A stretch of 60,419 nt of DNA, counting the filler, from Dugesia japonica (taxonomy: Eukaryota): NCBI GenBank assembly GCA_001938525.1. It is 6 parts of 6 records of this genome, joined end to end, with 100 filler letters (N's around TTAATTAATTAA, not from the genome) between each part and the next. Parts side by side here need not be neighbours in the genome. Positions count along the whole stretch, not along the records: positions 1 to 13,112 come from MQRL01635339.1; positions 13,213 to 22,766 come from MQRL01613836.1; positions 22,867 to 33,107 come from MQRL01493857.1; positions 33,208 to 42,130 come from MQRL01641582.1; 2 more parts are not named here. One strand, 5' to 3'. Numbering within the stretch: position 1 is the stretch's first letter; every line of letters starts with the position of its first letter. The notes under the pieces were generated by a model that saw nothing but the letters and a program-made list of their open reading frames with translations, had not been told where the DNA came from and did not search any database. Position numbers and translations under genes: made by a program. Of this stretch, positions 3,595-33,854 are shown one piece after another.

Positions 3595-3735
3595 ATAATT
3601 GTAATTATTGTGAGAATAATTGTTGGACAATAATTCATTGATCGCATTGGAGATTTCAATATAATAATGAAAAGGCTTTGATCAAAATAAAATGTATTTG
3701 TAAAGAAATTCAAATTCTTCTTCAGGAATGATGAC
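3595..3735 (-). repeat. Dispersed hammerhead-containing repeat, copy with stem II deleted
   Basis: Shares the TTCCTGAAGAAGA, TTTGATC(G/A)AAGC and GTCCAACAATTATTCTCACAATAATT blocks with copies at 10.6, 12.3, 22.3, 24.8 and 33.5 kb. Confidence 0.7.
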
Positions 3736-4091
3736 TTTCTGATTGATTCAAATTGTCGATCGATCATTGCTACAAATTCTTAATCTTTTATCGAGATTTT
3801 ATTGGTCTATTAAATTATAATTTTTTTTTAAAATTAAGTCTGAAAAATTATTTTTAATTAAATTTGATTAAAAATTTTCCTAAATGTTTTTTTTAAAAAA
3901 ACATTAATGCCTTAAAGTAAATAAAATATTTAGATATGTATTTTATTAATATTAAAATTTTACTCTAATTTTTTTACTAATTTTTTTTAAGATATTTTAA
4001 TTATTAGGAATCTTTGAAAAAATGTTTATTTATTTTTTTTAATTATTTTTTTTTAAAATTATTTTAATTATTTATTTTTAATTTTTAACTT

Positions 4092-6730
4092 TTAATTGTT
4101 GTGATTATTTTTTTCCACAATTCTTTCAATCATCTTGCCTTCTGAAGTCTTCAGCAGGTATCGTCTTTCATGAATCTGTTTTATCAACTTGTATGGACCT
4201 GTATATCTTTCTTTGTCTTTTGATCTGTTTTCTACCTTGATTAGCACCTCGTCTCCACCTTGAAAATATCTCTTTGTTGGTGTCAACTCTTCATATTCTT
4301 CATTTTTGTATCCATTATTAAACTATCTTTCTCTATGTATCTTCTTACCAAATATCATTTCTTCTGGATTTATCTCCAAAGTCTTCTGACTTGTTGCATT
4401 TAGTGTATATTCAATTTCTCGTATTAACTCCGCCCAATTTTTATTCTTTCTATCTTTTAATGTTGCATTGATATAATCTCTAATCGTTCTGAATTGAAGT
4501 TCTACCATTCCATTTGTATTATGATGATATTGGCTTAAAAAGCAAATTGTTATATTCATTGAATCCGTCATCTCTTTAAAGGCCTTCAGTTTGAAGATTT
4601 CCCCATAATCTACATGTATTTCCTTTGGAGCCCCAAATATTAGTATTCATTTATCCATAATCGTTTTCTTTATTGATTCTTCATCTTGCTTATCTGGGGA
4701 TGGTAAACATATTTATCTGCGAAATTGATATATGGTGGTACATATATATCTTTTACTTCCTAAGGTTTATTGGAATGGTCAAGCGATATCTATATAAATA
4801 CTTTCAAATGGTTCATAAGCTTTTAATTTTAAAGTTTCTTTCTTTGTTCTAACTGTTGTTACTTTGTTCATTTGGCACTTTGTGCATTCGTTAATTAGTC
4901 TTGACACAGTTTCTCTCAAATCTTCCATATAATATTCATTTTTCAAATAATTTCGCACTTTTTCGGTGTTTGCGTGAACCAATAAATTATGCATTTCTTT
5001 CACCACTACCATCTGAATTTTCCTTTCAGACAGGATCCATATTTTGCCGTCTTTGCTTTTTATTATATCTTTTATTAATCGAAATGTTTTATATGTTCCA
5101 TCATTCTTTGTCTGTTCGATTTCTTCTACGTTACTTTGCCATTTATATGCATCTGAACCTGANNNNNNNNNNNNNNNNNNNNNNNNNNNNNNNNNNNNNN
5201 NNNNNNNNNNNNNNNNNNNNNNNNNNNCAAAATTCATTCTCGACAGCATATCTACATTCGTGTGTTTCGCACATTGTATAAATTCTAATACCATATTTAG
5301 GCTACTAAAATAATTTATCTAAGTCTGAAATTGCGTAGTGATTGACTTGTTTGTCTTTTTCATAAATGCTATCACATTGTGATCTGTTCTCACCGAAAGT
5401 ATTTTCCATACAAATAATGTTTAAAATGGTTACAAAAATAGTAAAAAGCCAATAATCCCTTTCTTCTTATACAATACCTTTTTCAAGAGCTGACATTGCA
5501 TATAATCCATATGTCTTGGTTTGTTTTAGTTCTCACAAATCTATTTGCGATGAAACTACTCCGATAGCATCAAAACTTGCGTCTCTATCTAGTACGAACA
5601 TCTTTTTTGATAAATGAAAAACTAAATATTTGTGCTTTTTTTAATGCCTCTTTCATCTCATTAAATAACAGCTTTCAGACCACACCAGGTTTGTAGTATT
5701 ACATTCACATAGCTCTTCCAAGTTTCGAGCTTTCTTTGAGTAATTATTAGTAAACCATCTANAGTAATTGCATATTCCCAAAAAGGTTTTCAAGTTCTTC
5801 ATACGTTTATGTCTTCCGAAAATTTTTATTGCTTCAATTTTTTTTGGATCAGTTTTAACTCCATTTTTGTCTATGACACGTCCTAAATATGTGACTTCTG
5901 CTCGCAATAAATGACATTTTTTCGGATTAATTCTCAATCCTGATTCTTGAATTCTTTTAAAAACTTGGTCTGAAGTTCTATAGTCCTGCTTTACTGTTTC
6001 TGAAAATATTAATATAGTATTTATGTATACCATCGTTTTTCTCAATCTTCCTTAAACGTTTGTCATTAATTCTTGAAACGTTACAGTTACTGAAATTACA
6101 TCAAAATTCATTTTTGTGAAACAATACAGTCCATTTTCGTAGAAAATGCTATTCTCTCTTGTAAATATTTATGTAAAGAAACTTGAAAGTATACATAAAT
6201 CAAATCAATAAAACTGAAATATCTTGCACCACACAAATTATCTAATGTTTCATCTACATTAGTCATCAGAAATGCCAGTCTTTCTGTGATTGCATTCAGT
6301 TTTCCAAAATCAAGATAATCTAAAGTCTTTCCTTTATTTTTTCCAAACACATATTATTGGAGTGTTCCATTGTGAATTACACTTCCTAATAATGCCATTG
6401 TAAAAAATAATTATTGATAGCTGCATCTATCTTATTTTCTAAAAGCATTGGTTGTCTCCATGGCTATGTATTTATTCCTTCTCCATTTGTGATTATTTGA
6501 TGTTTTCTCATTATACCAGTTGTCTGCCACGAATATTCCTTTATGAATCATTATAACTTTCTCTGAATTATTATTTGGCTGGTTAATCAATATCTTTATT
6601 GGTCTCTGTACTCTCTGACATTTATTAACATCTAGTATTTCGTTATCATACACAAAATAGAAGAATATGAAGCAACATAGACTCCGGTCCATGTTACATC
6701 TTAGTTTCTTCGAAAATCTTTTCTTCATGT
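4092..6730 (-). mobile_element. pol: Decayed Ty3/Gypsy pol (RT-RNaseH-integrase-GPY/F)
   Basis: Fragments include LDFGKLN, YFSFIDL..YFQV, GLRINPKKCHLL..VTYLG, FLGICNY, HTNVDMLSR, HNLLVH..CTKCQ, YHHNTNGMVE and YTGPYK, in Gypsy order, with many stops and frameshifts. Confidence 0.9.
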
Positions 6731-9139
6731 TTAACTAGGGCTAGGTCAGATTTGGCATATCTCAATTGACCTGACGTACAAGTTGCATCACATGTTTCAA
6801 TTGCTCTATCAACTGTCGATGAACGATCTCAGTGAAAACTACTACCGTTTAAGTACGTCACTGTTGATTTGAAATTTGTGCAAGATTATCGGATATTTCC
6901 TGAACTTGGTGAACATATTATCGTTCCATTTGTTGTAGGGGAATCGTTTTCTCTTTTCTTCTCTGAGCCAGCTCCTTTTCTAATTCCTAGATGTGTATTT
7001 CTATTTGTAATAATCAATTCTGACTAATCCAACACAGTTGCCGATTTGAAAAAATTCTGCGAGCAAATGCAAAAGTTTGTGGAAATCGTCGCATTCCTAT
7101 CTGTCAAATCTCCGCCCACCTATTGTAAAAATTACATGGCTTTGGTTGACGTTACTATTTTCGACATATGAATACAACATTATTAATACCATACCTTTGT
7201 TATAGAACATTATAAATTATTTGATAATGATGAAGTATTATTCATTTTGTTATTTAAGGACTTAGGACCAGTCTAACTAAATACATCATCTATGATTTAA
7301 CTTAGCTCTTTGGAATAATGAGATTAGTTTGATTGTTCAATGTTTTTATAAATACACATTACAAGGAAGACAAATTCAACTCCTACTAAGCTTGTAATTG
7401 TTGAAAAACGTATAAAAAACTGTTCCATTCTTTTTATTAACAAATGTAGAATTGTTTTATCATTTAAATTGATATCAGATATCAACATACNTTATATAAC
7501 GAATTAATTTCAACCAATATGAACTAAGATAAATTATTTTTATCAATAATTAATTTCTATTAATGAATTATAGTATTAATTTTAAAAACAAATATGCGTG
7601 AAATTAATTGCTGTGATTCGGAAAATCAATTATCCTTAGAGGATGTAGCTAACATGGTGGCATTGTTAAATACCGATCCAATTACAGATAGGTAATTAGT
7701 AAAAAACGGTGTGAAGAGTGCTACACAAATTTGAAAATGAAAACAACAACTGACCAATTTATGACTACTACAGAGCCAGGAAACCAATATAATCGAAAAA
7801 AAAGTAGATGAAGACGTCAATATAAACAATGGGCATGGATAAGTATTTGAAAGTGATATTGGAAGACAACACCCAAAAGACAGGGTTCCATCAGTAAAGA
7901 CGTTGATTGGAGCCATACATTGTTATATGAAGTAATTGATCATCCTCAAGGGATTGAAATGTCAGACAACATCGGCAAAGTTACAGAAAAAGTATACAGG
8001 TTCTCAAAGTGGGAAAATTTGGGGAAGACAGAAAAATAAAATAGCTTGGAAATATTGGAAATTGAACTTTTGAGAACTGTCGGAAATTTACACATATTTT
8101 CAGAGAAGTGTTGGAAAATTCTCAAAATCTGTGTAAAATACAAGGAAAGAAATTGTAAAATTTAACAGAAGTCATGGAAAAGTAAACAAAATTTCCTAGT
8201 AGTGTGTGAAAATTTATCAAAATTTTACAGAGGTCACGGAGATCTATTCATAGAAGTTATGGAAAGTTAATGAGAAATTGTTAGACGATGATGAAATATT
8301 TCATGCTCTATTAACTATATTCAAGGATTTTCATTGTAATCGTGCATTTGAAATACTATAGTCATTACCATAATTTTTCTTTAGATTAATAAAAGTTGTT
8401 TCGCATATTTGTTTGATCTACCATCAACCCTTGAAAATAAAGTACTTAAAACATGAATAATATTCTGTCATATTTCTAAAATGATTTTACTATAGATACA
8501 TGTATTTAATTAATTTTAATTAAAATTATTAATCAATTGTATTAAGATTTTACATAAATCTTGTTTTAAATCATGGCTTGCAATAAATGTAAACTTTTCA
8601 AATTTCCAAATTTTTTTATTCATGCATATACAAGTCAAATCTTTTAGAAATTGTTCAATATTACAAAGGAAACTGTGACAACACTTGAATACCTTCCATC
8701 TAGACCAATACAAAGCATTAAACGTGATACATTCATTAGCCCAATACAATAAATAAACTTAGTATTGTCAATAAACCTGATATATTCATTAAATTTATAC
8801 ATTCAATTCATTCACGTATTTTACTCAAATCTTGTATTTAGGGCTTTCATTTATTTTAATCTAATCAATCAAGTCAATCAGTCTACTTAATCTATTGAAT
8901 ATACTTAATTTGTTTCATTAGTCATAAATCTATAAATAATAGTCACTATTTTCTACAAAACTAAGATGATTCAAATGTTTAATAGAGGACAACATTACTT
9001 TATAGTCTATCATTATAATCCATTTCATTCTACAACCAATGATACGATTAATCAACTTAATCCAATAAAATCAATTTACATAGGTATTTATTAATTTGTA
9101 TAACAATTTTGTCTTGTCAAATACAATAAGTTAATCCAT

Positions 9140-9790: not shown

Positions 9791-10106
9791 TACACAGCCA
9801 TAACACAAACACTACAAAACAGGAGAAACAGTAAACTTTTATAATTTCAATTTTCTTTTTTTACAGTTTTTAGATTCCTTTAAAACCTCTGAGCCTCAAA
9901 CGTCCAACAAAATAATTGAACATAACTTTCAAAATATTCCAATAACGCCTTAGTCTCAGGATATATTGCTTTTTAAAAAGCAAATAAAAGATTAAAATTT
10001 CTTGAATAAAATTTATTTTTGTAATTTTCTATTCTAATTCTTATGATAAGAAATTTAAAGTCATACTATTAGTTCTGACTGAAAAAATTAAATACCAAAG
10101 TAAAAG

Positions 10107-10850
10107 TGATCCAGTGTGTCACTACCTTTTCTGAGAGAACCAAGTAGATATTTTTTAACAAACCCTATATAGCAAATAAAGGACTTTTAAGTCTAAGAAT
10201 AATGATACCAAATTCAATATCACAGGATAATTTCTGACAAGAAATAAATTATTGAAATATTTAATTAAAACTTTAAAAATTTTTTTTCATTGGAAAAAAA
10301 GCATTTTTCAGAAAAAATGCATGGATACATACCTGACCTACTTTTTAATTCTCTACACAATGATACGGGTTTCGAGTCGAAATACTCTAGATCACTTTGG
10401 GTTGGGTACTGATCCAGTACGTAACTACCTGTTCTGAGAGAATCAAGCATGTTTTGAAAGAAATAAAGTTATATTCTTATAGAGTTTTTAATTATTGAAT
10501 TAAATGGTAAAATATATTTTAAAAATTATTATTAATTTAATTATAATTAATTTAAAATAAAAGCTTCGATCGAAATTTGTTTTTTTGTATTTTTTGAAAA
10601 TAATTCTATATTTCTACGTTGTCTTCTTCAGGAATTGACAAATTAGAAATCCTCTGATAAAAATTTAAAAACTAAAAGTCAATTTTTCGAACTTCCCGAG
10701 CTAAAAATTGACCATATAATTCAAAATAAAAAAATTGGTTTACATAATCGTAACGGCCAATCAAAATCCTACGTTTTTAGATCACTCAAATCTCTGGATC
10801 ACTTCGTCAGTGGCAGAGGTGATCAAGTGCGTCACTATTTATCTACTCGA
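10107..10850. repeat. Three diverged ~40-bp direct repeats with GATCAC/GTGATC inverted cores
   Basis: gtgatccagtgtgtcactacc..ctgagagaaccaag (~10107), ctgatccagtacgtaactacc..ctgagagaatcaag (~10409), gtgatcaagtgcgtcacta (~10819). Confidence 0.6.
10602..10636 (-). ncRNA. Minimal type I hammerhead ribozyme motif
   Basis: Minus strand reads AATTC-CTGAAGA-A-GAC(AAC)GTA-GAAA-TATA-GAATT, giving a 5-bp stem I and an intact core. Confidence 0.7.
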
Positions 10851-12224
10851 CGCAATACAAAAAAATGTACAACATAATGTGTGTCATCTTACCCCGCATG
10901 CTTGATATACTAATATTTGTAAACTTTATAGAAAAATGATTATTTTGGAAATTTTCATTTTATAATGGCGTTACAATAATAACAAAATTTTTATTTGAAA
11001 GCAGCCAGTCAAAGGAGTCAGTTGTGATACCCTAAAATTTTAAGGGTGATTTTACATTAAATTATAACAGTATATATATAATATGAGATTGAATGAAAAT
11101 TCTTACTTATTTTAAGCAAAAATAATCAAGAAATATTTTTATTATTTTATATAGCTTGTCCTCATCTTTGTAGTAAACAATTAATTCCTCTAGCAAAAAT
11201 GTCTCTGCGTTTAGAGTCAAAGAAAGTCAAAAGAGCCAATTTAGCAACACTGGAATAACCAAATGATTTCTGGTCGAAATAAGTAATCAGATGGAGCAAT
11301 GGCCAGGAGAATATAGAGGGTGACTAAGAATCTCTAAGTTCAATTAGTTATTCCTGTAAAAACTACTGTCTTTTAATGTGTGAAATATTTATATTAAATT
11401 CATAATTCATTTACAGTTATCATTCTACTCAACAATATGTTGTTTTAATTTCGTAAAAGTAGAGAAGAACATTCAGAACTTCAATTCAATTGGATTGGCT
11501 GTCCGATCATTAGGTACCCAATTAGACAATTTAAGAATAAATACAAGTTAAATCCTGTAATTTATAATTGTTCTTTGTGAGAGCTCATATTTTTCAGTTT
11601 TTTTGGATGATGAAGGTCGATCTGTCGAAATATATCACAATAAACCTTTATTTTAAATGGCGTTTTCTATTTTGTATGAAACATTTCTATCGTTTTTTAC
11701 ATATTTATATAAAATAATAATCAAAATTTATTCAATGAAGATCAAAATTGTATATATATATATATATATAGAAAAATTTATTATATTAATTTAAATTTTC
11801 CATTTTTATTTAAGAATTAATTAAAATAATTTCGAGGTATTTTAATAAAATTACCCAGAAATAATTTAACAATTGAAATTTTACATAATCAATTTTATTA
11901 TTAAAATAAATTTTATGCTTGAAATTTTTAAAAGGATTGTACAAAATTAAATTAATCAAAATTAATTAAGCAAATCTTTTTCGATTATATAAAGAGGAAA
12001 TACGATAGAAATAAGTTAATTTGTTTAAATTAACAATTCTTTTTATAAAATTAACAGTTAATAGAAAAATAAACGAAAAACGAAATATTTAAATCTGTTT
12101 TTATATGCTTCTTCTAGAAAATTAAATTGAAATTAGCTACAATTTAATAGATTGGTTTTATTCTAAGAAGATTTACATAACATAAAATCTATAATGATAA
12201 CAGCACTATAGAAGAGGAGGTTAC

Positions 12225-12345
12225 TTAAGAAAATTTGAATTTCTATACAAATACATTTTATTTTGATCGAAGCTTTTTCTTTATTTTAATGAAATCTCAA
12301 ATGCGATCAATAGTTAAGTCCAACAATTATTCTCGCTATAATTTT
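12225..12345 (+). repeat. Dispersed hammerhead-family repeat, 5'-degenerate copy
   Basis: gaaaatttgaatt...ttttgatcgaagcttttt...gatcaatagttaagtccaacaattattctc, the inverse of the copy at 3.6-3.7 kb. Confidence 0.7.
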
Positions 12346-13112
12346 AATTAAATTTATTAATAATTACGTAGAAATTTATTAAAATTATGTACAACTTTAC
12401 TGTCAATTATTATGTAAAAAAACTTAATAATAATGTATAAATTTATTAATAGTTATAAAAAAGTATAACTATTTATCAAAAAATATTTTTCAAAACGCAA
12501 AGATGAAGATCCTGAAGAAGACCTTTGCGAAAAATTTGACTTANNNNNNNNNNNNNNNNNNNNNNNNNNNNNNNNNNNNNNNNNNNNNNNNNNNNNNNNN
12601 NNNNNNNNNNNNNNNNNNNNNNNNNNNNNNNNNNNNNNNNNNNNNNNNNNNNNNNNNNNNNNNNNNNNNNNNNNNNNNNNNNNNNNNNNNNNNNNNNNNN
12701 NNNAATTCTCAATACATTTATAAAAAATGTATTTAGTTATGAAAATGAAAACTAAAAATGCGCATCGAATACTAGCTATGTGAAGTGAACCAAAAATCTG
12801 GTTACGGTGCCTAACATAACACTCATAATAAAACAAAGTTTTATTTAACGCTTATCTGGTGACGTACAAATTTCTAACATAAGTGATATTGTGGTGCATT
12901 TTGGAGATCATTTTTGGCCGAATCTGTTATTAATAGGTTTAATCAATAAACTCAGCTTTTTTTTCAAACAAAGAGCTGGAGAATTTGTGTTTCAAGCCAA
13001 AACTATTTGTTTCAAACAATAAATTGTCATTGTTTAAATAGTTTTTCATTATAAACTTTTTTTTATTGCAATATTAATTTATATTGAAAAGAAAATTAAA
13101 GTGCCGCCTATT

Positions 13113-13988: not shown

Positions 13989-15152
13989 CTACAAAATCAT
14001 GATCAAATATTTTACCTTAGACATCTTGACTGTAGCATCTACATGTTCGGTTTGACATTGAGAACAATAACTTGGAAGAATACGAGACATACCATCTGTG
14101 TTTGAAATTTCTAAGACTTTCTCTGAATTCGGCCTCAATCCGTCTTTGCTAACTGTATGGCCCAAAAATAACAATTTACTTTGATATAATTTACATTTAT
14201 TTGGACTGATTTTGAGACCAAAAATATGAATTCTTTGAAATACATTTTCAAGTATTTTATCATGTTCTGATTGACTTTTTGCAAATATTAAAATATTTTC
14301 AATATATACAACTACACCTTTAAATAGAAATCCATCCAAAATTGTATGCATCAATTTTTGAAATGTAGCTGGTGCAGTTGATAAATCAAATGGCCAACGA
14401 TTGTAGCAATATTGTCCCTTCTTTGTAGAAAATGCCGTTTTAATCTTATCTTCTGCGTTTAATTCTACTTGATAATAAGCTGGTCCTACAACCAGCGTTA
14501 AAAATATTGTACAATCACAAAGGTGATCAAACAAAGTTTGTTGATCTGGCATTGGGAATGCCAACTTTTTTGTAGCATCATTCAATATTCTTAACTCTTG
14601 GCACATTCTGATCGCGCCATTCTTTTTACCAATAATTACCATTGGAAAATTCCAAGCACTTCTGCATTCTTTGATAATATTGCTTTCTTTCAGTTGATCA
14701 ATCAATTCATCAATCTTCTGTTTAAAATGTATTGGTTGACGTCGAGGTTGTTGTAGAATAGGGTCACCAACTGTTGGAAGGAAATGTTTTACAACATGTG
14801 TTTTTCCAAGATCAAAAGTATCTGCCATAAATATATATGACAATTTTAGAAGCCTTTCTTTTAAATCATTATCTTTCGATTTAAATGCTGGTACGGCTGC
14901 TTTAAAACAATCATTATCAGTGAATTTGCTGTTAATGTTCTTGGAGTCCAATATATTAAGCATTTCTAATTGAATATTAAATGCATTAAACATATCAATT
15001 CCACCAATAATTTTCGGGTTTATTCCATCAACAATCACAATATAAACAATTCTCTTTACATTTCCAAATTCTATTTCAACTTTTTCAATTTCTGAACAAT
15101 TCACTGCTTCTTTTGAAAATGCACCACTCAATTTAATATTGCATTTATTCAC
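13989..15152 (-). CDS. pol: Gypsy protease C-terminus + reverse transcriptase (degenerate, RNase H deleted in frame)
   Basis: SAWNFPMVII, KTAFST..GQY.YNRWPF.LSTAPATFQ, a degenerate YIEN catalytic motif and FLGH. It then jumps directly to NTDGMSR..CSQCQ. Confidence 0.8.
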   Translation of the reverse strand: MNKCNIKLSGAFSKEAVNCSEIEKVEIEFGNVKRIVYIVIVDGINPKIIGGIDMFNAFNIQLEMLNILDSKNINSKFTDNDCFKAAVPAFKSKDNDLKERLLKLSYIFMADTFDLGKTHVVKHFLPTVGDPILQQPRRQPIHFKQKIDELIDQLKESNIIKECRSAWNFPMVIIGKKNGAIRMCQELRILNDATKKLAFPMPDQQTLFDHLCDCTIFLTLVVGPAYYQVELNAEDKIKTAFSTKKGQYCYNRWPFDLSTAPATFQKLMHTILDGFLFKGVVVYIENILIFAKSQSEHDKILENVFQRIHIFGLKISPNKCKLYQSKLLFLGHTVSKDGLRPNSEKVLEISNTDGMSRILPSYCSQCQTEHVDATVKMSKVKYLIMIL

Positions 15153-15439
15153 TAGAAAAGATCCACACTCTCTCTATATGCATCATTGATATTGAAGCAC
15201 CTGTATCCCAGAACATTTTGACCATTTTACTTCTAACTTTGACCATACTCATTCTTCTTTTACATATCACAATTCTGATATTCAGTTTTTATTGTAATGA
15301 CTCCACTGACGTTTAAATAGCTAATGATCATCTTTAAATCTTTATTTCTTTCATCCACATTGTCATCTTCTCCTGAAATGCATATCACACAATATTGTTA
15401 TGATATATCTAATTTCCAAGTAATTGACAGTTTCTAAAA

Positions 15440-16290
15440 CTATGACCTGTTTTTACCACAAGTTAAGCAACATGATTTAATAGGGTAGTTACTAAGTATG
15501 TGACCCATCAGACCACAGCAAAAACATGAGCCATTTTTTAATTGTTCTTCTTTTGGTGGAGGAAGTCCTTTTGATCTATTGTACAATTTCCTTGCAATAA
15601 ACTTCATCAAAACTGTTGGCATATTTCTAAACTGACCATCTCTACTGTTTTTGGAATCAGCAATTAGAATTGCCTTTTCAATTTCATTATTCTTAGGTTT
15701 ATAATAGTTAGAACCTTTTAAATCAGTTTTCTTAATTCTCGAATTGTAACTTGTAGCTACCACTTCCGAGGAAGTCAACTTATTTATTAATGACCCACCA
15801 AAATTTCCATCGTTCTTCTCAAATTTTTTAGCCAACTTTCTCTTTTCATACGGCCTAATTTCTGGTTTTAGAGCAAATGATTTTCTTAGCTCTTCGTAAC
15901 AACTTTTTTCTTGATTATTTGCCGAACAATTTCCTTTACAGTCAATTGTAATTCAAATATTTATTTGACTGATCTTAAAACTCTTAATTCAAAGTTTTCG
16001 AAACTTTCATTTTCTTTTTGTCGAATTCCACTACATTCTTCAATAATTCAGAGAAATGACTTTTCTTTTATAAATTTGCCTTTAACCATTCGCTAGCCAT
16101 TCTATCGTTAACATTTTTCAGGCTTTTAAATGCTTGCCACAGGTCTTTTGTATCACCGTCTAATAAAAAATCCAAGGTGGATAATAAATCAAAACTGTCT
16201 GGTTCTGCAAAAACTAAAATTTCATTTAACCATTTTGCTGGGTCTTCGTCATAATTCCCAGAGAATTTCGTAATTTTATGGGTTAATAAT
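15440..16290 (-). pseudogene. gag: Gypsy gag remnant
   Basis: FSG.YDEDPAKWLNE near the start, and CFCCGLMGH / CLTCGK knuckles in ORF 15440-15835. Interrupted. Confidence 0.7.
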
Positions 16291-18052: not shown

Positions 18053-21000
18053 TCCTCCTTTTAAAGAAACTTCTAAGTTTCTCCACATTTCCAATCGCTG
18101 TCCATTTTCTCCTTGTACCACATACCGTCTTTTTTCTCAATTATTCGATAAGGTCCTTCAAATCTGTCTTGACTTTTATTTCTTGTTTCTACCTTGATAA
18201 GTACCATATCGCCCACTTTGAATTTTCTGTTAGTAATCATGTCCGAAGTGTTTTCTTCAGTTCTATTTGAAACGTCTGACTCATACCATTTTTCTGTGCT
18301 TATTTTCTTTCCAAATACGATCTCAGCTGGGCTCTTCCCAGTCGTCTTCTGTTTTGTTGCGTTCATTGTAAATTCTATTTCCGGTAAAAGATCTGCCCAC
18401 TTTGTTGTCTTTCTTTCCTGAAGTGTGGCATTAATAAAATCTTGAATTGTCCTGAACTGTCTTTCAATTTGTCCGTTTGCATTATGATGATAGATACTCG
18501 AAAACCAAAGTTTAATACCTAGCTTCAGGGCAAACTCACTCATAACTCAAGATTCAAAAGCTTTTTCACAATCTAGTCTTATCTCTCTTGGACATCCAAA
18601 TCTCAAAATCCACTTTTCAAAAATAGCTCTTCATATTGTTTCCTCGTCTTGTCTAGGCAATGGTATAAGAACCAGATATTTACTGTACTGATAAATTATT
18701 CCAAGAATGTATTTTTTCGTCCATTTTTTCCGGCATTGGCCCATTTATATCTGTGAATATGACTTCAAACAAATTGGTAGCTTCTAGTCTCCTTGTCTTC
18801 TCTTTAGTTAATGTTTTCGTTACTTTAGTCTTCTGAAAAATTTCACAACTACAAACTATCTTTTGTATTTGGCTCCACAAATTTTTCGCAATGTATTTGT
18901 TTCTCATATATTCTTACACCTTTTCAACTCCTATCATGACATAATAATTTGTGTATTTCTTCATATGTCTCCTGTATTTTGTCATCCAAAATTTTTATTT
19001 TCTTGATTAAATCTGTTTCCTTAGAAATGTTTGATTGCTCTTCTTTTTACTTTTTAATTATGTTCAGTATTCTCGTTTAAATATTTCCTTTCTTGGCTCC
19101 TTCATGTGACATTTGATATTGTACACATATCTCGAGTCTTGGTCTAAATAACATATCTGCATTATCATGTTAAATTTCTTTTCTATATTCCAAAACCATA
19201 TCTAAACTGCTGACATAATTAATCCATGTCTGGACGTAATGGGCTTTTTGTCGTAATCATGAAAGTTTGAGCTTTGTGATCTGTTTTAAAAGTAAATCTT
19301 CTACCGTACAAGTAATGTTTGAAATGCATACAGAAAAAATAAACAGCCAATAATTCTTTTCGTGTAATGCTGTATCCTTTTTTATGACTCGTCATTGAGT
19401 GCGATCCATAGGCAACAACTCTTTTTCTTCCTTCTTTATCTCTCTGTGACAATACTGTTCTAATTGTATCGAAACTGGCATCTGTATCTAATATAAATTC
19501 TTTATTTATGTCCGGAAAACACAATATTGGTGCAGTCATTAGAAATTACTTCGGATCCTCAAAAGTATTGTTTATTTCATCTGTACATTCTAATTTCTTG
19601 TTGCTTGGTCCGCTACACAACTGCTCTAAGATCCTTGATTTTCTTGCGTCGTTTTCTATAAACTTCCTGTAATAATTAGAAATTCCCAAGAAACTTCGTA
19701 GCTTCTTCACACAGTTAGGTTTGCTAAATGTTCTTATTGCTTCTATTTTAGACGAGTTAGTTCTAACACTATCTTTGCTAATTATGTATCCCAGAAATTT
19801 GAATTCACTTTGAGGAAACTGACACTTTTCTGGATAATTCTTAAACCTGCCTTCATTACTTCCATTGATACTTTTTCAATGACTTCATAGTGTTGATCTT
19901 TATTGTTCGTTACTATCAAGATTTCAACAAGATAAAGCATGGCTCCATTGATTTTGCCTACCACTTTAATTATCATCTCTTGAAATGTCCCTGGTGTCAC
20001 TGCGATACCAAATGGTATTCTATTAAAACAAAATTGTCCATGTTTCGTTGAAAACGCCGTTTTTTCTTGAGATTCTTCTTCTAGCTTTACCTGATAGTAT
20101 GTATTTCCCAAATCTATTGAACTGAAATATTTGGCTCCATCTAACTTGTCCAGCATTTCATCGACATTAGGCATCGGAAAGGCTTGTCTTTTCATAACTG
20201 CCTTCAATTGTCTGAAATTCAAACATATTCTTATGTCTTTCTTTTCATTTTTCCAAACACAGATTAGTGGGGTATTCCATGAAGAGTTGCATTTCCGGAT
20301 AATATTATTCTCGAAAAGGTTTTGGATAGCTTCTTCAATTTTAGATTCTAAGTTTATTGGTTGCCTATGCGGCTTTACATTGATTGGTTCACCCCTTGTG
20401 ATTATTTTGTGTCTTGTTAGATCTATGCGTCCTACATCAAATTTATCTGCCATAAAAGCATCTTCTTTACTTTCAATTATTTTCAATAACCGTTGATACT
20501 CTTAAATCTTCAAAATATTTAATGCTCATGTCAGTCGCTCTCCTTTTTTAATTTGTCTCCCAAATTTCGCTTCAATATTACAAATGTAATTTACAACGTT
20601 TTCATCCGCTTTGCTATTAATCTTTTGCATAGGCTAGTATCCAAAAATTCTCTGCATATCTATTCCTCCTATCAGATCTGGTGTCAATCTTTCAGCTACT
20701 AAGAACGTAACCTCTTTGTAAACTTCATCAGTTATCACTCCAATTCTAAATTTTTCAACAATTTTAAGTGTACTATTATTTGCACAACGAAATCTTTCAT
20801 CTCTCATTTCTAAATGTAGTTTTCGTAATTTATTAAAACAACTCAAACTCATCACGTTAATTCTAGCTCCTGTATCTAATAGACTTTATTTCCTTGAATT
20901 GATACCGTAACACTTGATCTGCCTTGCAATTTATGATATGAAATATTTGTTTTCTGTTCTGCTGCAACAGTTCCAACCCAGTCTATTTTTCTATCATCCG

Positions 21001-21145: not shown

Positions 21146-21612
21146 TTTCAATAATAATTATTTCCTTATAATTTGTACAATTATTTTAAGAATCAGCTTA
21201 ACCGAGAAGAATAATTGCAAATATTTAATAATATTTTCTGATAGTTAAGTTATAAAACACAAAATTTCATTCAATTTTAATTGATAAAATATAACCAGAG
21301 CATATTTTTATAATTCTTATATTCAAAATCATTTTATTAAAGACAAATTCTTTGGATACATTACGTTGTAAAATAGAATAAAAATCTAGGAAACTTATTC
21401 AACACATCATATTTAAAACAACTTAACAATTAAAAGTTCAAATAGTAAAACAAAAATTCATTAAATAATTTGTTTGTTTATTTCAAATGTCAATATTAAT
21501 GTTAAAGTTCATAAATTAAAATGGAATTTGATTTTATTTTGATCGAGTATTCACAAATTTAAAATTACAAATATTAATTTTAAGTTATATCCAATTATTT
21601 AATTAATTAACT

Positions 21613-22111
21613 ATGAAATATCTAAAACGTCGAATAAGAAAAAGAAACGAATATAAAAATGGAATAAATAAAATGAGTTTTTACCAAAAAATAGCTTACG
21701 GTTTGGGAGCTCCTCCAATTTCAATGGTGTCAAATACTATGGCTTTATTTTTGCCAATATTTTTGCTAGAAACAGCGAAAATTAATCCTTTTTATTTGTC
21801 TGCGTTTCAGATAATTAGCAGAATTTCAGATGCTATTACAGATCCAATAATTGGATATTTTGTCAACCGGACTAATTCACGGTTTGGAAAATTTAAACCT
21901 TGGATATTTTGTGCTACGCCTTTTTCATGTGTAACTTTCGTTTGTCAATTTTACGTTCCCAATATTAATAATGAAGCAGCTAAATTTTTGATTTATTGTA
22001 TTATTATAATACTGGCTCAGATTGGTTTTACTGCCTATTATGTTCCATATTCTTCGATGTGTATGGTTCTCACGTCGAATTCTCAAGTGAGAGATCTATT
22101 AATTTCTATTA
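21613..22111 (+). CDS. MFS transporter, MFSD2/MelB (GPH) family, first exon (partial gene)
   Basis: KIAYGLG, RISDAITDPIIGYFVNRTNSRFGKFKPW, VPYSSM..LT...RD, with hydrophobic helices. A probable donor A|GTGAGC at 22112 is followed by AT-rich intron-like sequence. The remaining exons are not visible. Confidence 0.85.
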
Positions 22112-22259
22112 GTGAGCATTTATTATTGAAGATAATTAAATATGTTAATATTTTATTAAATATTTAATTAAAAATTTTATTAAATATTTAATTAAATATT
22201 TTATTAAATAATTTATTATATAATTTATTAAATTATCTATTATTATTTAATTTTTTTTA

Positions 22260-22410
22260 CAATTGCAATTATTGTGAGAATAATTGTTGGACATAACCAT
22301 TGATCATTTCACAGAATTCTTTAAAGTAAAAGCTTCGATCAAAATTTGATTTTTTGGTTTTACGATAATAATTCTTTATTTCGACTTTATCTTCGTCAGG
22401 AATTGATTTT
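22260..22410 (-). repeat. Dispersed repeat with hammerhead motif at 22370-22404
   Basis: Minus strand reads AATTC-CTGACGA-A-GAT(AAA)GTC-GAAA-TAAA-GAATT, plus the conserved downstream blocks. Confidence 0.75.
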
Positions 22411-22689
22411 TTGATTTATTCAATATTTATTTTTACAATAGTAATTTTTATTGAATTAATTAATTTTTATTAAAATTTATGTGATTAATTTTAATTTTTA
22501 TTTAATTCTTCATATTTTTAATTAATTTATTAAAGAATTTATAAAATATTTCATTAAATATTTTATTAAATAATTTACTTATTGATTTAATAAATAATTT
22601 ATTAAACATTTTATTAATTAATTTATCAAATAATTTATTAAAAAATGTAATTATTAATTTATTAAATAAATTAATTATTAGTTTATTTA

Positions 22690-24110: not shown

Positions 24111-24144
24111 TAGTATCTTGTTCATATTAAACGAATCATTTGAA

Positions 24145-24570: not shown

Positions 24571-24742
24571 ATTGAGAAAATATTAGTCGTTATAAAATAC
24601 GAATGCATGAAAACAATGAGTAATATGAACTTATTAATGTTATTAATAAATCTGTTTACTTGGAAATGTTTTTATTATACAATTAATTAAACCAATTTAT
24701 GACAATAAATAACTAAGATGAAAAGTCAAAAAAGGCTAAAAG

Positions 24743-24945
24743 AAAAGCTTCGATTAAATTAATTTTGTTTTTGAAATATTATAATTTTGTAGTATTTCAA
24801 AACAAGTCAATTCCTGACGATGAAAAAATAGAAAATTTGAAATACTATCATAAACAAAAATAATTTGATCGAAGCTTTTTTGTTGATGAAAACTCAAAAA
24901 AGATCAATGGTTACATTCAACAATTATTCTCGTAATAATTGTAAT
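24743..24945 (+). repeat. Hammerhead-family repeat with partial inverted duplication (motif at 24809-24843)
   Basis: AATTC-CTGACGA-T-...-GAAA-ATTT-GAAAT. The segment aaaagcttcgattaaatta (~24743) is the inverse of taatttgatcgaagctttt (~24861). Confidence 0.7.
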
Positions 24946-26059
24946 GTAAAAACGCTAAAATATTCGTTAATTCACATTTTGGATGCTTATTATTTTTCAT
25001 AAATTTTGAACTTACTATGTAATGAAATATTTTATTTCTCTATGTACGTGTATGATTAATCGATGTTATTTTTGATGATTTTAATAATATAAAACGAAAA
25101 TTTAAATGTATAACTTACTCACAGTAAATATTGATATAGATTGTTTTGTGGATTATACCGATATTAATTATTCAGTTTTGAAGGAACCAGTTAAAAAAGT
25201 GAAAAAAGTTGATTTGGCTGATATTCTATGTGAACAATTAACGATTTAAATCAATACACTTGATTATAGCAATAACATGTACTATTTTGGCTCCTCCATT
25301 GATCTAATCAAATTGCTCAAGTAATTTATTTAATTTATTATTACAATAATGACATGTATTTATTTTCAGATTGTAATCCAACCAAATATTTTCTAGAAAA
25401 AGATTCGCGATCAAAAAAAATTATTTGTTTTGTGAATAAATCATGTAATCTTAATCATCTTTTTATTATTTTGTTTCTATTTTTGTAAATCGTATTCTTT
25501 TAAAGTAACTAGTTATGTTAGTTTTTATTAATGTAAATTTATGTTTCTATTATTGTAAGAAATTTTAGATAATATTAGAAAAATGACCTCAGGGGTTGAC
25601 TTTTAACACGTGCTCTTTTAAGGGTCATTTTTTAATGTTTAATTTTTAAAGGGAAACGGAAATCCGGGCGAACAATTCAAATTTTTTAAAATTTTTCAAA
25701 AATAATATTTTACTCTTAGATTACAAATCTTTTTATACCAAACTGCTGAAAATTCTACAGAGATCATTTTTGGTTTTTCCAATATTTTAAACAGAACTTT
25801 TCGAAAAATATTTTCTAATTCAGAAATTGGTCATCAAACCGTATATTTGATAGGAAATTTAACGGTAAGCAAGGATATCATCACCTAAAATCGGCAAACC
25901 TTATACATTAAAGTTATATTGAAAAACATGTGCTTAATTTTACTTATTATTCCTTTGATATTTATTAATTTAATATTAAATAAAACGTGATTTAAAAATA
26001 GTTATAATTGATTTGTTATAATAGATATCAATTTTAAAATAGCAATCAACATTTCCACT

Positions 26060-26650
26060 TTTTATGAGGAAAAGATAAGAGTCTTGCTTGGAGGAAGTTT
26101 AGAAGAACTTATACAGTTCTTTAAATCAAAGGAGTTAATGGTTTTATCAATGCAGTGAAATTGAGATGAATTGGTAAAAAACACATCCACGAGAGATCGA
26201 TTTGTATGGAAATGCCAAGATAAACATTTTAGTCTATATAGGACTACAACATCCATAACAAAGATTTCAATTTTTGGTAGTTCCACAATCAATCTTAGAA
26301 CTTGGTTGGAGATTTTATATTGATGGACAGTTAAAGAGAGTATTTGTCAGATTAAGAAGTAGATATCAATATCGTCACCTACCCTAATTAAGATCTTCAA
26401 ACTGTTAAAAACAGTTGTCTCCAACTATTTTCTGAGGCATTCAATTATATTCGGAGGAGAAAATGTTTTATGCCAAATTGACAGAAGCTTATTTTGTCAT
26501 AAGCAAGAGTATCATCGAGACAGAGTTTTAGATTCTCAAATAGGGGTATTTGAGATTGTAGACTGCAGTTACGTTTCAGCTAAACGGTTTATTTCGGTGA
26601 TACCTAATAGAAAAACTGATACTTTATTGCCAATAATTACTCAGATAGTA
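26060..26650 (+). mobile_element. Merlin/IS1595 (ISXO2) transposase pseudogene, 3'-truncated
   Basis: The plus frame reads FVWKC...GGENVLCQIDRSLFCHKQEYHRDR...VFEIVD...VIPNRKTDTLLPII, matching GG....V.IDES.F..KY.RGR...VFG...R...TL..II. Confidence 0.85.
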
Positions 26651-27309
26651 AATGATATAATATAAGTAAATAATATTAATTCAAATTACATTTGAAATTT
26701 TAAATAATACTCATAATTGAATCAAATTATGAGAAGGAAGCATTTGTTGATAGTAGTCATTTAGGTAATATATATTTAGTTTTCTTTATTCTGAATCTAA
26801 TGATAACAAAATTGAACCTATATTATAGTTATTATCTGAGAAACTTATACGCAAAAGTTCAAATAGTTCGAAACACACGTACTTTTACCTTAAGAATAAA
26901 ACTTTTTCGAAGGTAATATCGTACAATATGTAGTCAGTATTTAAATCTGAATATAATAATACTGACATCTGTCACTATACAATAGTTTTAACCAGTTATG
27001 TCCTACACCAATTATCAACACCCTCGAGCAATTTTCATAGGGAAGAAAGAATTTTTAGATAAAAATACAAGTTTATGAGACATGCTTATCTTACTTTTAT
27101 ATGTTTTATCCAACCATACTGGTTTTGATCTGAAATTGTCTAAATCACTATGTCGGTTGGAGAAGGCGGTGATGTATTGATGTAGTTATGGAATCCATAA
27201 ATAGTAAGTAATGTACTCCATTTAGTGGGCTTAACAAATAGTAAGTTTTTAGCTGCTTTCGAGCAATCCAACCATTAACATTGAGATTCACTTTCACCAA
27301 CTGGACAAA

Positions 27310-28479: not shown

Positions 28480-29345
28480 GATATATTTATATTTGCATAT
28501 ATAGGGGTACCCGAAAAAATTGCGTTTTACAGTACAAGTATAGAAATATCACTATCTTGAACTGCTGATAACATAGATCAAATGCATCGTATTGGTGGAA
28601 ATGATCCTCGTTTATGTATAAGTGACGTTTCAAGATTATCGTGGGGCGCAATTTAGCTAATTCTGACTTATAATCTCCACAAATATAGCGTCTGTGAGAA
28701 ATGGGTCTCTCATACATTGTCGGATGTCGTGGAAAAACCAGAGTTAGTAGAGATCCAGTACCATCCTACCGAACCTCTATGAAAGTATAATAGTGATAGA
28801 TGAGGAATAGTTTTATAAATATCCTCTACCACCGATAAAAAATGTAAGGGCTTGGGTCGATAACAAAGCTGATAGACCTGAAGTTTCTCGATGTCTCAAT
28901 ACCATTAAACATCAAATATTTGTGGCAATTAACTTTAGAGGAAAATACTAATTTGATATTGTTAAACGGGCCATCTTCGTGAATTCAGAGGGATACATTC
29001 AATTCCTCACTAATTTTCTGTGCTGTTCATAGATGAGAATCCTTAAGAATCATGTAAGACAATGCAAGATCACATACTGTGGAAATTAATCTAAATTTCT
29101 TTTGTAACAATAAAGTTAAAACTCTTCATCAGCCACCATACTTACCAAACATGAATCATTTAGACAGAGTCGTGTTTAAAATTATGGAGGTTACACGAAA
29201 AGACATCACATTTACCAACTCAGAACACGTCCATGTTTTTTGCTGAATTATTTTTGTTATTCGAGAAAATACTTTGAGCAATGAATTTTCAAATTGAGAA
29301 ACGATCTTCAAAACAACATTGATACAGGTGGAAATTACTTATGAA
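28480..29345 (+). mobile_element. Tc1/mariner-superfamily transposase pseudogene
   Basis: IIVIDEE.FY, NSEGYIQFL, DNARSHT, QPPYLPNMNHLD..VF and IDTGGNY motifs. Confidence 0.75.
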
Positions 29346-29894
29346 AGATGAAACCTGTGAATAAAGAACTATGTTAATAATTTGTTACTTGTTATAATAC
29401 TTTTAAAATAAATTAGCTCTATTTGTAATGATATTTATCTACATTTATTTAAATACAGAATTTTTTTCTGGTTATCCCAATATTTTTATCTTTCAAAGAA
29501 GATAGTAGCACAAAACTAAAATTAAAAACAAAAATTATAATTTCAAAAATACAAATTACAAACTTAAAATACAAAATGAAAGTTATAAAGTAAAAATTTC
29601 AAACTCAATATTTAATAAAAATAGAACTTACTTAAAATTTCGTCGATTTAAACAAAAAAATTAATGAAATAAATAAATAAAAATAAATATATAAACTACT
29701 GAAAGAAAATCGATAAATCCATAAATAAACAAATAAATTTAATTTATTAAAATAAAAATGAATGAAAGAATGGAAAGAAAGTTTTCAGGGACATATGTAG
29801 AGATTTGTTTGAGAAGGTGAGTAACGTGGAGTCAGTAGATGCAGGGCAAATAGACTGCCAAGTAAGCATTGACATATTGTAATTGTTCAAGTTC

Positions 29895-31992
29895 AAGGGA
29901 AGTAAACTATCATATTTGAGTATTCAAATTTGCGTGTTTTTGACTATTTGAATGCGAATATTTTCCTCATATTCGAATAATTTCAAAAGTGTAAAGGCAC
30001 AGTAAGCTTTGAAAGAAATACTGTTCATTTCTCCTCTTGCAAACAAAATATTACGTATATGTTAGTAAACAGAAATGAAACTGAAAAGTAAACAAAATTC
30101 TAAAAACGTTTATATAACCTTGAGGTGGAGAAATGAAATTGCCTTTTTGTAAAGTATTAATTTTGCGTTATATTATTTCTGTTAGCTTTTAGAAAACAGC
30201 CGGTTGTTAAAATTGCTTAAAAATATTCGTAGAATTTAATTAATTACTGTATAAGAAAGACGTAAATAAATTGGTGAAGCCACATGTTGTACGCGCATAG
30301 GATGGAGAAGTTCAACCACTGCTACGATTAAGTATTTGAAACCACAAGATAAAATATTGATATCTAAATCTGTATCGGATAAACAAATTATAGAAAATAA
30401 ATTTTCTAAGAAAAAACAAAAATCTAAAACAAGTACTAATTGGCAATTTGTATAAAACATAATCTTTAGATGAAATATTGTCAAAAGTCGCAACTTTTAT
30501 GGGAATGTCGATTACTCAAATACAATTGAATGCTATGATCTGGGTTTGATGGAAATAACTAAGCAAAGAAATGCAGAAACAATTAAACATTTGGTTGAAG
30601 CTAAGTTAACAGACTTTGAGATTTTTTTAAAGATAATGTTATTACAGAATACACTAACAAAGCAGCAGCCGTAATATATTAGGTATTTTAAATCAATTTT
30701 GCCATAATCACGAGCTTCATTTAGTCGTGATGGGTTGTTCTTATATTCCAAAGATTTTTATTCCCAATGAAATGTTTGATGATACCAAAGATTTTGTTAA
30801 TGAATTTATAGAAGAAGAGATAGTAGAGAATTCCACAGAAGATCAGTACTTTGATTATAATTTGAAGTTTATTGAGGAAAATGAATTTATTATGACATTT
30901 GTTATAGATTTTGATCAAATTATTAACAGGTTTATAAGATTTTGTAAAAATGGGAAAATCTCAAGTTAAATTTAGACATAAAAACTCGATAGAATTCTTT
31001 GAGTGCGACGATTCGATGATTTTTAATTCTATCAGAGCATATTAACAAATCATTAGACAAATTGAATTTTGATTAAATCCCTGAAAATGTTAAATTTGTC
31101 ATACAAAAAAACTTGTTGATGTTCTCGAACCATTTGAAACAATCGTTACTGAATTGAGTAAAAATAATGCAAACCGCATAGCAGCTAAAGGAGTTTACTA
31201 ATTAATATTTGAAAAGTTGCAACATATGCAAACTAATATAGCAAAAAAGTGATACATGCTATCAAAAAAAGGATGGATGAGAGAAGAGATCCAGTTTTAA
31301 TGACACTGATAATGTATTTACTGAGTGGAAATTTACAAGTTTTAACGATCATTTTAAATATTTCTCAAAAAATACAGCAATTTCATTGGTTGTTGAAATT
31401 ATGGAGCAAATATATCCAAAAATGTTTATAAAAAAAGCATTTTATTAATGATTCTACCTCATCTTCATCTGAGGCAAATGTTTTAAAAGAATTAACATCG
31501 CAAGCTGGATTGTAAATAGAACTAAAAAATGCAATAAATTATACTACAGTTACACGAAACTGCCATATTTGTAATCGCAGCCAAATTGATAAATATAACG
31601 AACTGAAGAAAGAATTTTGTCAATTGGATTCTTACAAAAAACGGTCGACAACATTGGGCACTTTATATCACGCTTTAGTAACTATACGCTCTACATCAAC
31701 AACTTCTGAAAGAGTATTTTCAACAGCAGGTTCAATTACAACAAAAGGAAGAACAAGTTAGAAATTTGAAATATTCAATTCACTTTTATTTTTAAATGTT
31801 TTTAGATAAAAATTAATATTTCAAATAATAGAATCGTTCAAAATCAAATCTTAAATGCTTTATTATTAAATTATCATTATTTTTTATTTTGTCTTTTTAC
31901 TTTTCATACATTTTTCGAATATTCGATTACTCAAATATTTTTAGATTTTTCTATTTGATAATCAAAAAACGCTCGAATTGTTGGATGCATTA
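29895..31992 (+). mobile_element. Decayed hAT DNA transposon
   Basis: Dimerisation-domain motif TIRSTSTTSERVFSTAG..T.K.R at about 31680-31760, L.PFE..V.ELSK upstream, and TATTCGAATA-like subterminal motifs at both ends. Boundaries are approximate. Confidence 0.75.
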
Positions 31993-31994
31993 AA

Positions 31995-32770
31995 AAGAAG
32001 CAGATGCAGTGTTTGCTGGACACAGATGCGGGAATTTATGTATTTAGTTCAGAATGTTGAAGAAAACTGTGAAACAAGTGACTAGAAGAATGTGAAATGA
32101 ATTTACGTTGTGCCAAAATCAGTACTTTGAAAAAGATGAAGAAAGTTAGATTGGATTTATGGGTGGGCACTAGGACATATCGAATTACAGTCATTGTTGG
32201 AAGATACGTTTTACCAGAGAATATAATTTTTAAATATTTATTTCATTAGAGCAAGTTAAAGAGAGGAGTTAAAAACACTAAAGGACTATATTTGCAATTT
32301 GGAGGTGCATATGGGTAGATTCATTGATACTGGATAACTTTGGGACAAAGCGGAGAAAAGTATAAAATAGGGAGATGATACTTAGATGATGAGGTGATCC
32401 AAACCGATGATGATGAAAATAAGGAAATTGAGGGGATAGATTTTAATGGCGGACAAGTGAGATGTGGGCAAGACACATTTGACTAAACATAAGATCATCA
32501 CGAAAGCGAACCAGTTAATATGAAGCATACAAACAGTCGATGAATTTAGAAGAGAAAATAGACTAAGCGATCAGAAACTTGTTCGAAAACGATATTATTC
32601 GAAGATGTAACTCACTTTGGAATATTATCATTTTAAATGCCTGGAATAAAGAGGAAAATATATTGGATTATGCTTGGACTTAAGAAGATTAAACAAAATC
32701 ACAGAAAGACATGTATTTCCGATGCCAAATTTAAAAGAAATGTTAGATAATTTGAGTAAAGCAATGTTAC
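31995..32770 (+). mobile_element. Ty3/Gypsy fragment (protease to RT N-terminus)
   Basis: CLLDTDAG, LTKHKIIT, IIRRCNSLWN, LCLDLRRLNKITER..FPMP. Confidence 0.8.
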
Positions 32771-33546
32771 TTAAACATTTGGATTGCATTTAAATAAACA
32801 TTAGATAAACATTCCCAGGGAATTACTCTAAAACAGGAGTGCATATATAACTGAATGAAATTAAGTTATACTTATAACATCTGTCGATTTTTATATAAAG
32901 TTTACATATTGTTTAGTCAACGTTTTCTAACTTTCTATGTAAATTAATGAAATTGGTTCATAAATGAGTGTATGAATTATTGTACTCAATGTATATTTTA
33001 TTGACATTTGTATTAATCCTAATACGATTTGAATGTTGTAATGAAATTAGAATAATAATTAGAAATTTACATTTAAATTAATGAAATTAGTGTATGCTTG
33101 TGTATACNNNNNNNNNNNNNNNNNNNNNNNNNNNNNNNNNNNNNNNNNNNNTTAATTAATTAANNNNNNNNNNNNNNNNNNNNNNNNNNNNNNNNNNNNN
33201 NNNNNNNTTGCAATCAATTTTCTTCTAGTTTCCACAGTTTTCTAAATTTCAATAATTTAAACCTTTTAGAATTTCTTTTTTTCGTAATGTATTTTCATTT
33301 TTATAATAGTTTTGATGGCTTCAATTTTTCCAAATATTTCCGCTTATTGTAAAAATACTTAACTATAACAAACTTAAATCTTCAGATAATTCGATTTTTC
33401 CATGTGACTTCTCAAGCAGAACTTGAAATAAATTAATTTTAATTGTTAATTTACATACTTTTTTCTTCAGTTTATATTTGTAACCACATGCTAAACTTTC
33501 ATTAAAATAAAGTAAGTTTCGATCAAACTAATTTGTTGTTTAATAG

Positions 33547-33584
33547 ATATTCAAATTTTCGGCAATTGTCTTCTTCAGGAATAT
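33547..33584 (-). ncRNA. Minimal type I hammerhead ribozyme motif
   Basis: Minus strand reads ATATTC-CTGAAGA-A-GAC(AATT)GCC-GAAA-ATTT-GAATAT, giving a 6-bp stem I and an intact core. Confidence 0.75.
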
Positions 33585-33854
33585 GATGATGACTTTTTGA
33601 TAGATTTAAACAATATTAAAACATTGTTAGAAAATTGTTTATATTTCATCAAAATTTTATTGGTTTACTTAAATTATAAATTTAATTTTAAATTAATTTT
33701 AATTTAATCTCAAAATTTTTAATTAAATTGAAAATATTTAAATGTTCAATTATAAGTTGTATTTTATTATTTTTTTTATATTTAAAATTTTTAAAATTAT
33801 AATTATCATAAATTAATATAATTTTATTCAATTCAATTTTTATTATAATTGTTT

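Follow-up and report, generated by a model that had tools for sequence, protein, structure and literature searches.

A dispersed hammerhead repeat of Dugesia japonica, very probably the pseudo-LTR of an abundant and decayed Penelope-like element

Introduction

How does a minimal hammerhead ribozyme come to be scattered over a genome in short copies, most of which have no coding sequence beside them? The question is raised by a 60,419-nucleotide (nt) stretch of Dugesia japonica DNA (assembly GCA_001938525.1), referred to here as the window, which is made up of six AT-rich stretches (24-29% GC) taken from a fragmented, AT-rich genome of 854 Mb. Related copies of such a repeat are present on four of the six stretches, and a first-pass annotation had read them as an abundant non-coding family that was either retrozyme-like or a short interspersed element (SINE) of the solo pseudo-long terminal repeat (pLTR) kind. 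[quoted passage not shown]

The arrangement of a hammerhead within a pLTR is already published (Cervera and De la Pena 2014, PMC4209133; Frangieh et al. 2024, PMC11167929), and the family itself is a new example. A search of the literature found no description of this particular family; it did not cover repeat databases, and the supplements of papers may list the family.

The repeat links the two ends of a Penelope-like element

The link to coding sequence begins with the window copy near 22.3 kb (22.3k copy, Table 1), three of whose 30 closest relatives lead upstream into an open reading frame (ORF) of GIY-YIG type (L014, L015 and L024), a frame for which a first look at the genome gave 11,463 candidates. 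Among 78 loci selected by this ORF, 44 reach its C-terminus, and 34 of these are distinct. A hammerhead lies 70-554 nt past the stop in 16 of the 34, another 13 are too short, and in the remaining five it is missing despite at least 350 clean nt, one of these (L062) having had a BLAST match. Hammerhead subfamilies A, C and D, defined below, were each seen behind the ORF.

The protein is represented by P0001, an intact relative of 843 amino acids (aa) that is 82% identical over a 239-aa piece of genomic ORF. Its match to RVT_1 (29.6 bits) stands at the cut-off, with weaker RVT_1 matches in the genomic pieces L074 and L086, and its C-terminal GIY-YIG match (21.6 bits) falls just below the cut-off of 22.6. 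The Pfam E values for GIY-YIG in L086, L087 and P0001, from 1.5e-4 to 2.8e-4, are likewise just under cut-off, and the relative P0002 scores above it; by eye, the domain holds two Cys and two His residues (CCHH). Pfam returned nothing informative on the short, decayed ORF pieces of L015. A genome search with P0002, which is 56% identical, recovered only the same family, at 39-63% identity, and no closer one.

The other side of the repeat leads into the start of the same ORF. The motif GATCAATGG...ATTCTC, which had been taken as simply non-coding, forms a tail that reads in frame with the ORF start: in L139, host DNA is followed by hammerhead, a short box motif, tail and then residues 1-116 of P0001. 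This tail-ORF junction recurs in a set of 30 loci, and within the window, tblastn aligns residues 2-25 of P0001 with 24901-24972 at 67% identity (E 8e-5). The likely start codon lies about 9 nt beyond the tail, which has a further in-frame ATG of its own and at about 55-60 nt exceeds the 30-40 bp described for PLE tails. Two loci (L381 and L388) contain the full partial tandem of ORF end, untranslated region (UTR), hammerhead and ORF start. Between ORF end and ORF start the element passes in turn through an AT-rich 3'UTR, the hammerhead, the box and the tail. It is these tandems, together with the in-frame tail, that identify the repeat as a pLTR. In one further locus (L191) the start of the pLTR directly abuts the middle of the region that codes for GIY-YIG, which is likely the outcome of a template jump or a deletion.

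Abundance and structure of the hammerhead

A profile search (nhmmer) of the window, using a profile made from 60 genomic copies, recovered six copies at E 3e-33 to 4e-16, and the reversed window gave no match at E<=10. The copies first listed, on four stretches, are all present at their positions. Genome-wide, the core pattern has 10,569 exact matches, the tail motif 8,887 and the box motif 3,643, with none for the reversed control in each case. These counts are lower bounds, since all 11 core positions are kept in only 17 of 36 copies picked without regard to the core.

Numbered by the established convention and PMC4209133, the motif is a minimal type I hammerhead with the core CUGANGA...GAAA...UH, stems I and II, an extra base after A9 and a G10.1-C11.1 pair. 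An Rfam scan of the window at E<=5 matched no hammerhead model and gave four unrelated weak hits, taken as chance. Sorting of 186 natural motifs yielded five subfamilies, set apart by compensatory changes in stems I, II and III around a core that is retained. Subfamily A has stem I AATTC/GAATT and mostly ATAT as its stem III; B has ATATTC/GAATAT with AATT, C has ATTC/GAAT with AATT, and D has GTTC/GAAC with AATT; E shares the stem I of D and has stem II GGC/GCC with ATAT. The variation in stem I and the alternation of ATAT and AATT, both noted in the window at the outset, are thus differences between subfamilies. Stem III was palindromic in 79 of 94 copies in a sample selected by the core (AATT 42, ATAT 37), in keeping with the PLE-type minimal hammerhead originally proposed, and three of the 48 A-W-W-T words within subfamily A lack the palindrome. 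By analogy with its published counterparts, the hammerhead is predicted to need two copies, paired through the palindromic stem III, in order to cut.

These features closely follow the minimal hammerheads of metazoan PLEs as described in the available text of PMC4209133: type I topology with a stem I of 4-6 bp, an extra nucleotide between A9 and G10.1, the G10.1-C11.1 pair, palindromic positions 15.2-16.2, several consensus families in each genome that differ by compensatory changes, and mostly single dispersed copies with some opposite-strand pairs. The differences are that stem II is 3 bp in the main family, against 7-8 bp in the Schistosoma mansoni motifs, that the present motif is very A/U-rich, and that at least 10,569 exact-core copies exceed the 2,000-9,000 minimal hammerheads per genome in the available text of that paper.

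Covariation, suggested as a check at the outset, was measured on 47 copies (46 distinct; at most 10 per subfamily and seven for C). In this set 82.4% of cells pair, against at most 45.9% for slid control structures, and both-side changes number 54 cells against 27.5+/-4.0 after shuffling, a value reached in none of 500 shuffles. About four compensatory switches are involved, at pairs 4 and 5 of stem I, pair 2 of stem II and 15.2/16.2. A tree suggests that ATAT changed to AATT on the line leading to B, C and D; some AATT copies lie inside subfamily A, where the tree does not resolve their placement.

Within subfamily A, the expectation that the core would be better conserved than its flanks did not hold: core and stem positions were kept equally (354/381 against 575/630, p=0.41), also when only G/C positions were counted (119/139 against 177/206), and the core was kept better than the tail (1366/1555, p=0.005). 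Equal conservation of core and stems is what the neutral decay of dead copies gives, and it therefore points to selection on master elements and not on the copies. By this comparison the genomic copies appear to decay neutrally, conservation of the core being visible only between subfamilies.

How the copies arose

Where copies begin and end is informative about their templates. Of 54 subfamily-A copies sampled, six were too short to class; 43 of the remaining 48 start within about 13 nt of C3 and five run on into the 3'UTR, and likeness to ORF-linked copies drops to background at -14 from C3. A head-to-head inverted partner stands beside 18 of the 43 edge-starting copies, and inverted copies also occur at L100 and L109. 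At the other end, a set of 72 copies selected by the box contains 34 with a tail, 26 that stop at the box, five with a partial tail and seven that are too short. Among the 65 callable ones, 24 start 0-20 nt before C3 and three start within -3..+2 of the cut site, which is no more than an even spread, and a pile-up of genomic 5' ends at the cut site was not found; 11 rows of this tally were scored as continuing into the UTR, of which about three do so by eye, the rest reflecting over-extension in AT-rich flanks. Since copies span the cut site and few start there, most were likely made from uncut RNA. Three subfamily-A solo pLTRs (L155, L181 and L186) have an upstream flank in common and are probably a single insertion duplicated inside another repeat.

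A mechanism for such copies is offered by the Poseidon element of Anolis carolinensis, whose protein in vitro starts reverse transcription at two internal sites bounding the tail of uncut RNA (PMC11167929). In the available portions of that paper, Poseidon resembles the present element in having two 3' ends parted by the tail at the ORF start, copies that span the cut site and no RNA-seq reads piling up there. It differs in that its hammerhead overlaps the start codon and its start sites lie more than 100 nt into the ORF, whereas in the present element the likely ATG follows the hammerhead by about 125 nt and the tail is about 55-60 nt. By analogy, reverse transcription by the protein of the D. 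japonica element likely starts internally on the RNA, at one or the other end of the tail. The 5' edge about 13 nt before C3 would then be the 5' end of the RNA, that is, a start site within the pLTR. On a tandem RNA, copies bearing 3'UTR or ORF would come from initiation in the pLTR that lies downstream. Initiation in the first pLTR would run off at the 5' end after 100-160 nt and leave the many solo pLTRs. It was likely in master elements alone that the ribozyme stayed functional, probably helped by the protein of the element.

The short copies could instead be a pLTR-derived, non-autonomous SINE with short masters of its own, moved in trans by a PLE protein. Their sharp common 5' edge is what such an element would show, ORF matches adjoin only three loci in a core-selected sample of 89, mostly short contigs (the scarcity of adjoining coding sequence was correctly noted in the first-pass annotation), and pLTRs acting in trans are described in the available text of PMC3846280. 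We nevertheless consider separate masters improbable, because five ORF-bearing loci (L139, L387, L401, L406 and L408) begin at the same edge as the solo copies, variants of loop II, N7 and H17 in solo copies are also found in ORF-linked ones, and the 3' part of the repeat is in frame with the ORF; a tree within subfamily A does not resolve solo from ORF-linked lineages.

Another reading concerns the ribozyme and not the copies, namely that it acts as a brake on copy number and has no part in integration. A cut about 38 nt from the 5' end of the RNA would strip the cap ahead of the ORF, and transcripts of dead solo pLTRs, of which there are tens of thousands of copies and which are found in poly(A) RNA, could supply the stem III strand in trans, given that stem III needs a second strand. 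Active elements would then be silenced as copies accumulate. An index of RNA runs listed none with the query; raw runs under the same species label, from oligo-dT and cDNA libraries only, matched the family in both read orientations, with 4,251 of 13.6 million records in one run (X22). The matches in this run are mostly under 90% alike, and so stem from many copies. Read depth over the ORF start is about one tenth of that over the tail. The signal looks like passive transcription of embedded copies, and we regard the brake as a long shot.

Considerably less probable still is a non-LTR retrozyme, in which tandem units would be cut by the hammerhead, circularised and re-inserted. The likeness to such elements (PMC7229834) lies in a short, AT-rich repeat that holds a type I hammerhead and in a relation to pLTRs, from which animal retrozymes have been proposed to derive (10.64898/2026.07.22.740005). 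The present repeat is, however, dispersed and not tandem, with just two same-strand core pairs in the 89 mostly short loci and neither of them an array; its hammerhead is minimal and not of the canonical retrozyme type (PMC7229834); its copies neither begin nor end at the cut site; and it belongs to an ORF-bearing element. No recurring back-joint was seen in the RNA reads, though such libraries would miss circles. Of the family types first put forward, then, the solo pLTR stands, and the retrozyme-like and SINE labels are not supported, as the same dispersed sequence both follows the end of the GIY-YIG ORF and precedes its start. Finally, DNA recombination between the two pLTRs of an inserted element, in the manner of solo LTRs and as suggested for some rotifer solo pLTRs in the available text of PMC3846280, is a very remote prospect that leaves unexplained the frequent head-to-head partners (18/43), the two alternative 3' ends and the many copies truncated inside the pLTR.

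Evidence weighing against a dimer-cutting pLTR

Several results count against the reading of the repeat as the pLTR of a PLE with a dimer-cutting hammerhead. On the side of the element, no intact full-length copy was found in the assembly and every genomic ORF seen is broken; subfamilies B and E were not seen behind the ORF in the ORF-linked loci, and the loci sampled are mostly short contigs. On the side of the ribozyme, the rows of the covariation set are related and were chosen by the core pattern, which fixes the core and stem II columns, and the signal rests on few events: four pairs differ between subfamilies, and the change from ATAT to AATT may be one switch. Taken by itself, the palindromic 4-nt A/U duplex is unfavourable, at +1.6 to +2.2 kcal/mol, and a dimer in the hammerhead fold is far above the cofold minimum (-1.6 against -12.3 for subfamily A; the B, C and E rows of this comparison are damaged or mis-sorted copies). 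RNA read ends pile up neither at the 5' edge nor at the cut site, in libraries ill-suited to reveal this. The unfavourable dimer energies do fit the low activity of such minimal motifs (PMC4209133) and the protein dependence (PMC11167929) described in the available text of those papers.

Relationship to known PLE clades

Motif comparison by eye with Fig. S7 of PMC8557442, in the portion of that paper available, points to a Nematis-like protein, with the RT motifs GLAMG and RYIDD, a Cys-rich RT-EN linker and a CCHH-type GIY-YIG domain. It departs from Nematis in its linker, Cx3CxCx5C with CxC for CxxC, and in reading DKT for DKG. DKT, the CxCx5C string of the linker and an element length of about 3 kb are shared with the Hydra clade, the first two of which prompted that assignment; it was ruled out because CCHH, absent in Hydra, is present here, and because RT4 reads GLAMG, the RT being without FDVTMG and GLYRDD. 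The shortened linker is common to P0001-P0006, and the CxxC form occurs in most of P0007-P0022, so that P0001-P0006 are possibly an unnamed subgroup of Nematis-like PLEs.

A second hammerhead family

The motif at 11606, first listed as a weak member of the main family, does not score against the 60-copy profile and instead represents, in decayed form, a second family, termed F, with 769 candidates of its own in the genome and 888 exact core matches (control 0). Stem I is TTGT/ACAA or TTGC/GCAA, and the stem III word is ATATAT, or ATTGAT or ATTAAT in a sister group. PLE-protein matches occur in three of 30 family F loci, among them a GIY-YIG-like frame upstream in L352; on these matches, family F is probably the pLTR of another PLE. 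It resembles the longer-palindrome variants in the available text of PMC4209133.

Copies and other features in the window

None of the eight window copies of the main family is intact (Table 1), the 33.5k copy coming nearest. Those at 10.6k and 24.8k are solo copies, and those at 3.6k, 22.3k and 33.5k run on into upstream element sequence. The last of these has a long AT-rich upstream region common to other B copies. The broken word ATAA is shared by the 22.3k copy, L004, L006 and L030, which group weakly (84/70); as the other three were retrieved by their similarity to the window copy, we make no claim of a spreading dead-ribozyme master. The 22.3k pLTR lies, on the opposite strand, about 90 nt downstream of an exon-like frame of an MFS_2 transporter; it is flanked by 12-nt AT-rich tandem repeats and probably sits in an intron.

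Away from the repeat, the window holds several broken Ty3/gypsy-like LTR retrotransposon copies, which are 65-85% alike among themselves. No Rfam match reached threshold for two imperfect inverted repeats of 125-140 nt that could form hairpins. A short motif with the palindrome TCCCTAGGGA occurs twice in direct orientation, about 80 nt apart, and accounts for a weak mir-1994 hit in Rfam. Three short frames, which may resemble DNA-transposon or Polinton-type proteins, had no Pfam or PHROGs match where scanned.

Table 1. Features of the window, by position
Feature	Position	Strand	Remarks
5'-truncated PLE 3' end, subfamily C type (3.6k)	3592-3998	-	AT-rich 3'UTR (to about 3900-4000), hammerhead, box, tail; profile E 2.7e-21 (3592-3745); stem II and GAA deleted; upstream 70% like 3'UTR of ORF-linked L108 (E 3e-28, low-complexity filter off)
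Broken Ty3/gypsy-like copy	4326-6734	-	
Solo pLTR, subfamily A (10.6k)	10547-10639	-	Profile E 3.5e-16; tail absent, end after box; core of hammerhead (10602-10636) intact, C11.1 to A, G10.1-C11.1 pair lost
Decayed family F copy	11584-11680	+	5-bp stem II, 6-nt palindrome ATATAT; C3 lost
pLTR fragment, subfamily C type (12.3k)	12229-12350	+	Profile E 4.5e-25; box and tail present; 5' half missing, begins inside core at GAAA
Degenerate hammerhead core	12510-12542	+	Profile E 0.05, weak; ended by assembly gap
Broken Ty3/gypsy-like copy	13992-15952	-	RVT_1 E 2e-24 at 13992-15173
Broken Ty3/gypsy-like copy	18076-20885	-	
MFS_2 transporter exon-like frame	21607-22164	+	E 3e-32
5'-truncated 3' end, subfamily A (22.3k)	22257-22548	-	Profile E 3.2e-33 (22257-22415); about 130 nt 3'UTR, 80-84% like ORF-linked L104, L088, L087; hammerhead 22370-22404, U16.1 to A, hence no NUH; box, full tail
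Inverted, 5'-truncated partner pLTR	24737-24786	-	Profile E 0.0014; head-to-head with 24801-24949 copy
Solo pLTR, subfamily A type (24.8k)	24801-24949	+	Profile E 7e-24; stem II destroyed; tail 24901-24949
Short frame	26363-26662	+	
Short frame	31516-31758	+	
5'-truncated 3' end, subfamily B (33.5k)	33488-33850	-	Profile E 1e-28 (33488-33604); hammerhead and box, no tail; 84% to L055 over 255 nt
Best-kept window hammerhead	33547-33584	-	Stem I ATATTC/GAATAT, core intact, stem III AATT, one stem II mismatch; predicted cut between 33553 and 33552
Broken Ty3/gypsy-like copy	33846-36029	-	
Broken Ty3/gypsy-like copy	36778-39161	+	
Integrase zinc-finger match	39307-39663		
Frames of 426 and 496 aa parted by one in-frame stop	42279-45047	+	First with endonuclease VII-like domain; by motifs, candidate protein-primed DNA polymerase of a Polinton/Maverick-like element, with no library match to such a polymerase
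Imperfect inverted repeat	46430-46554		
Broken Ty3/gypsy-like copy	about 54100-57000	+	
Imperfect inverted repeat	58476-58613		
Direct copies of short motif	58786-58889		
Short frame	60088-60417	+	

Implications

The value of these findings is mainly one of annotation, in that a major repeat of an 854-Mb genome receives a name and its short copies are recognised as pieces of a Penelope-like element. The present family also lends genome-scale support, probably from a second PLE clade, to internal initiation on uncut RNA, and its natural series of compensatory changes implies that the minimal hammerhead was kept in the master elements.

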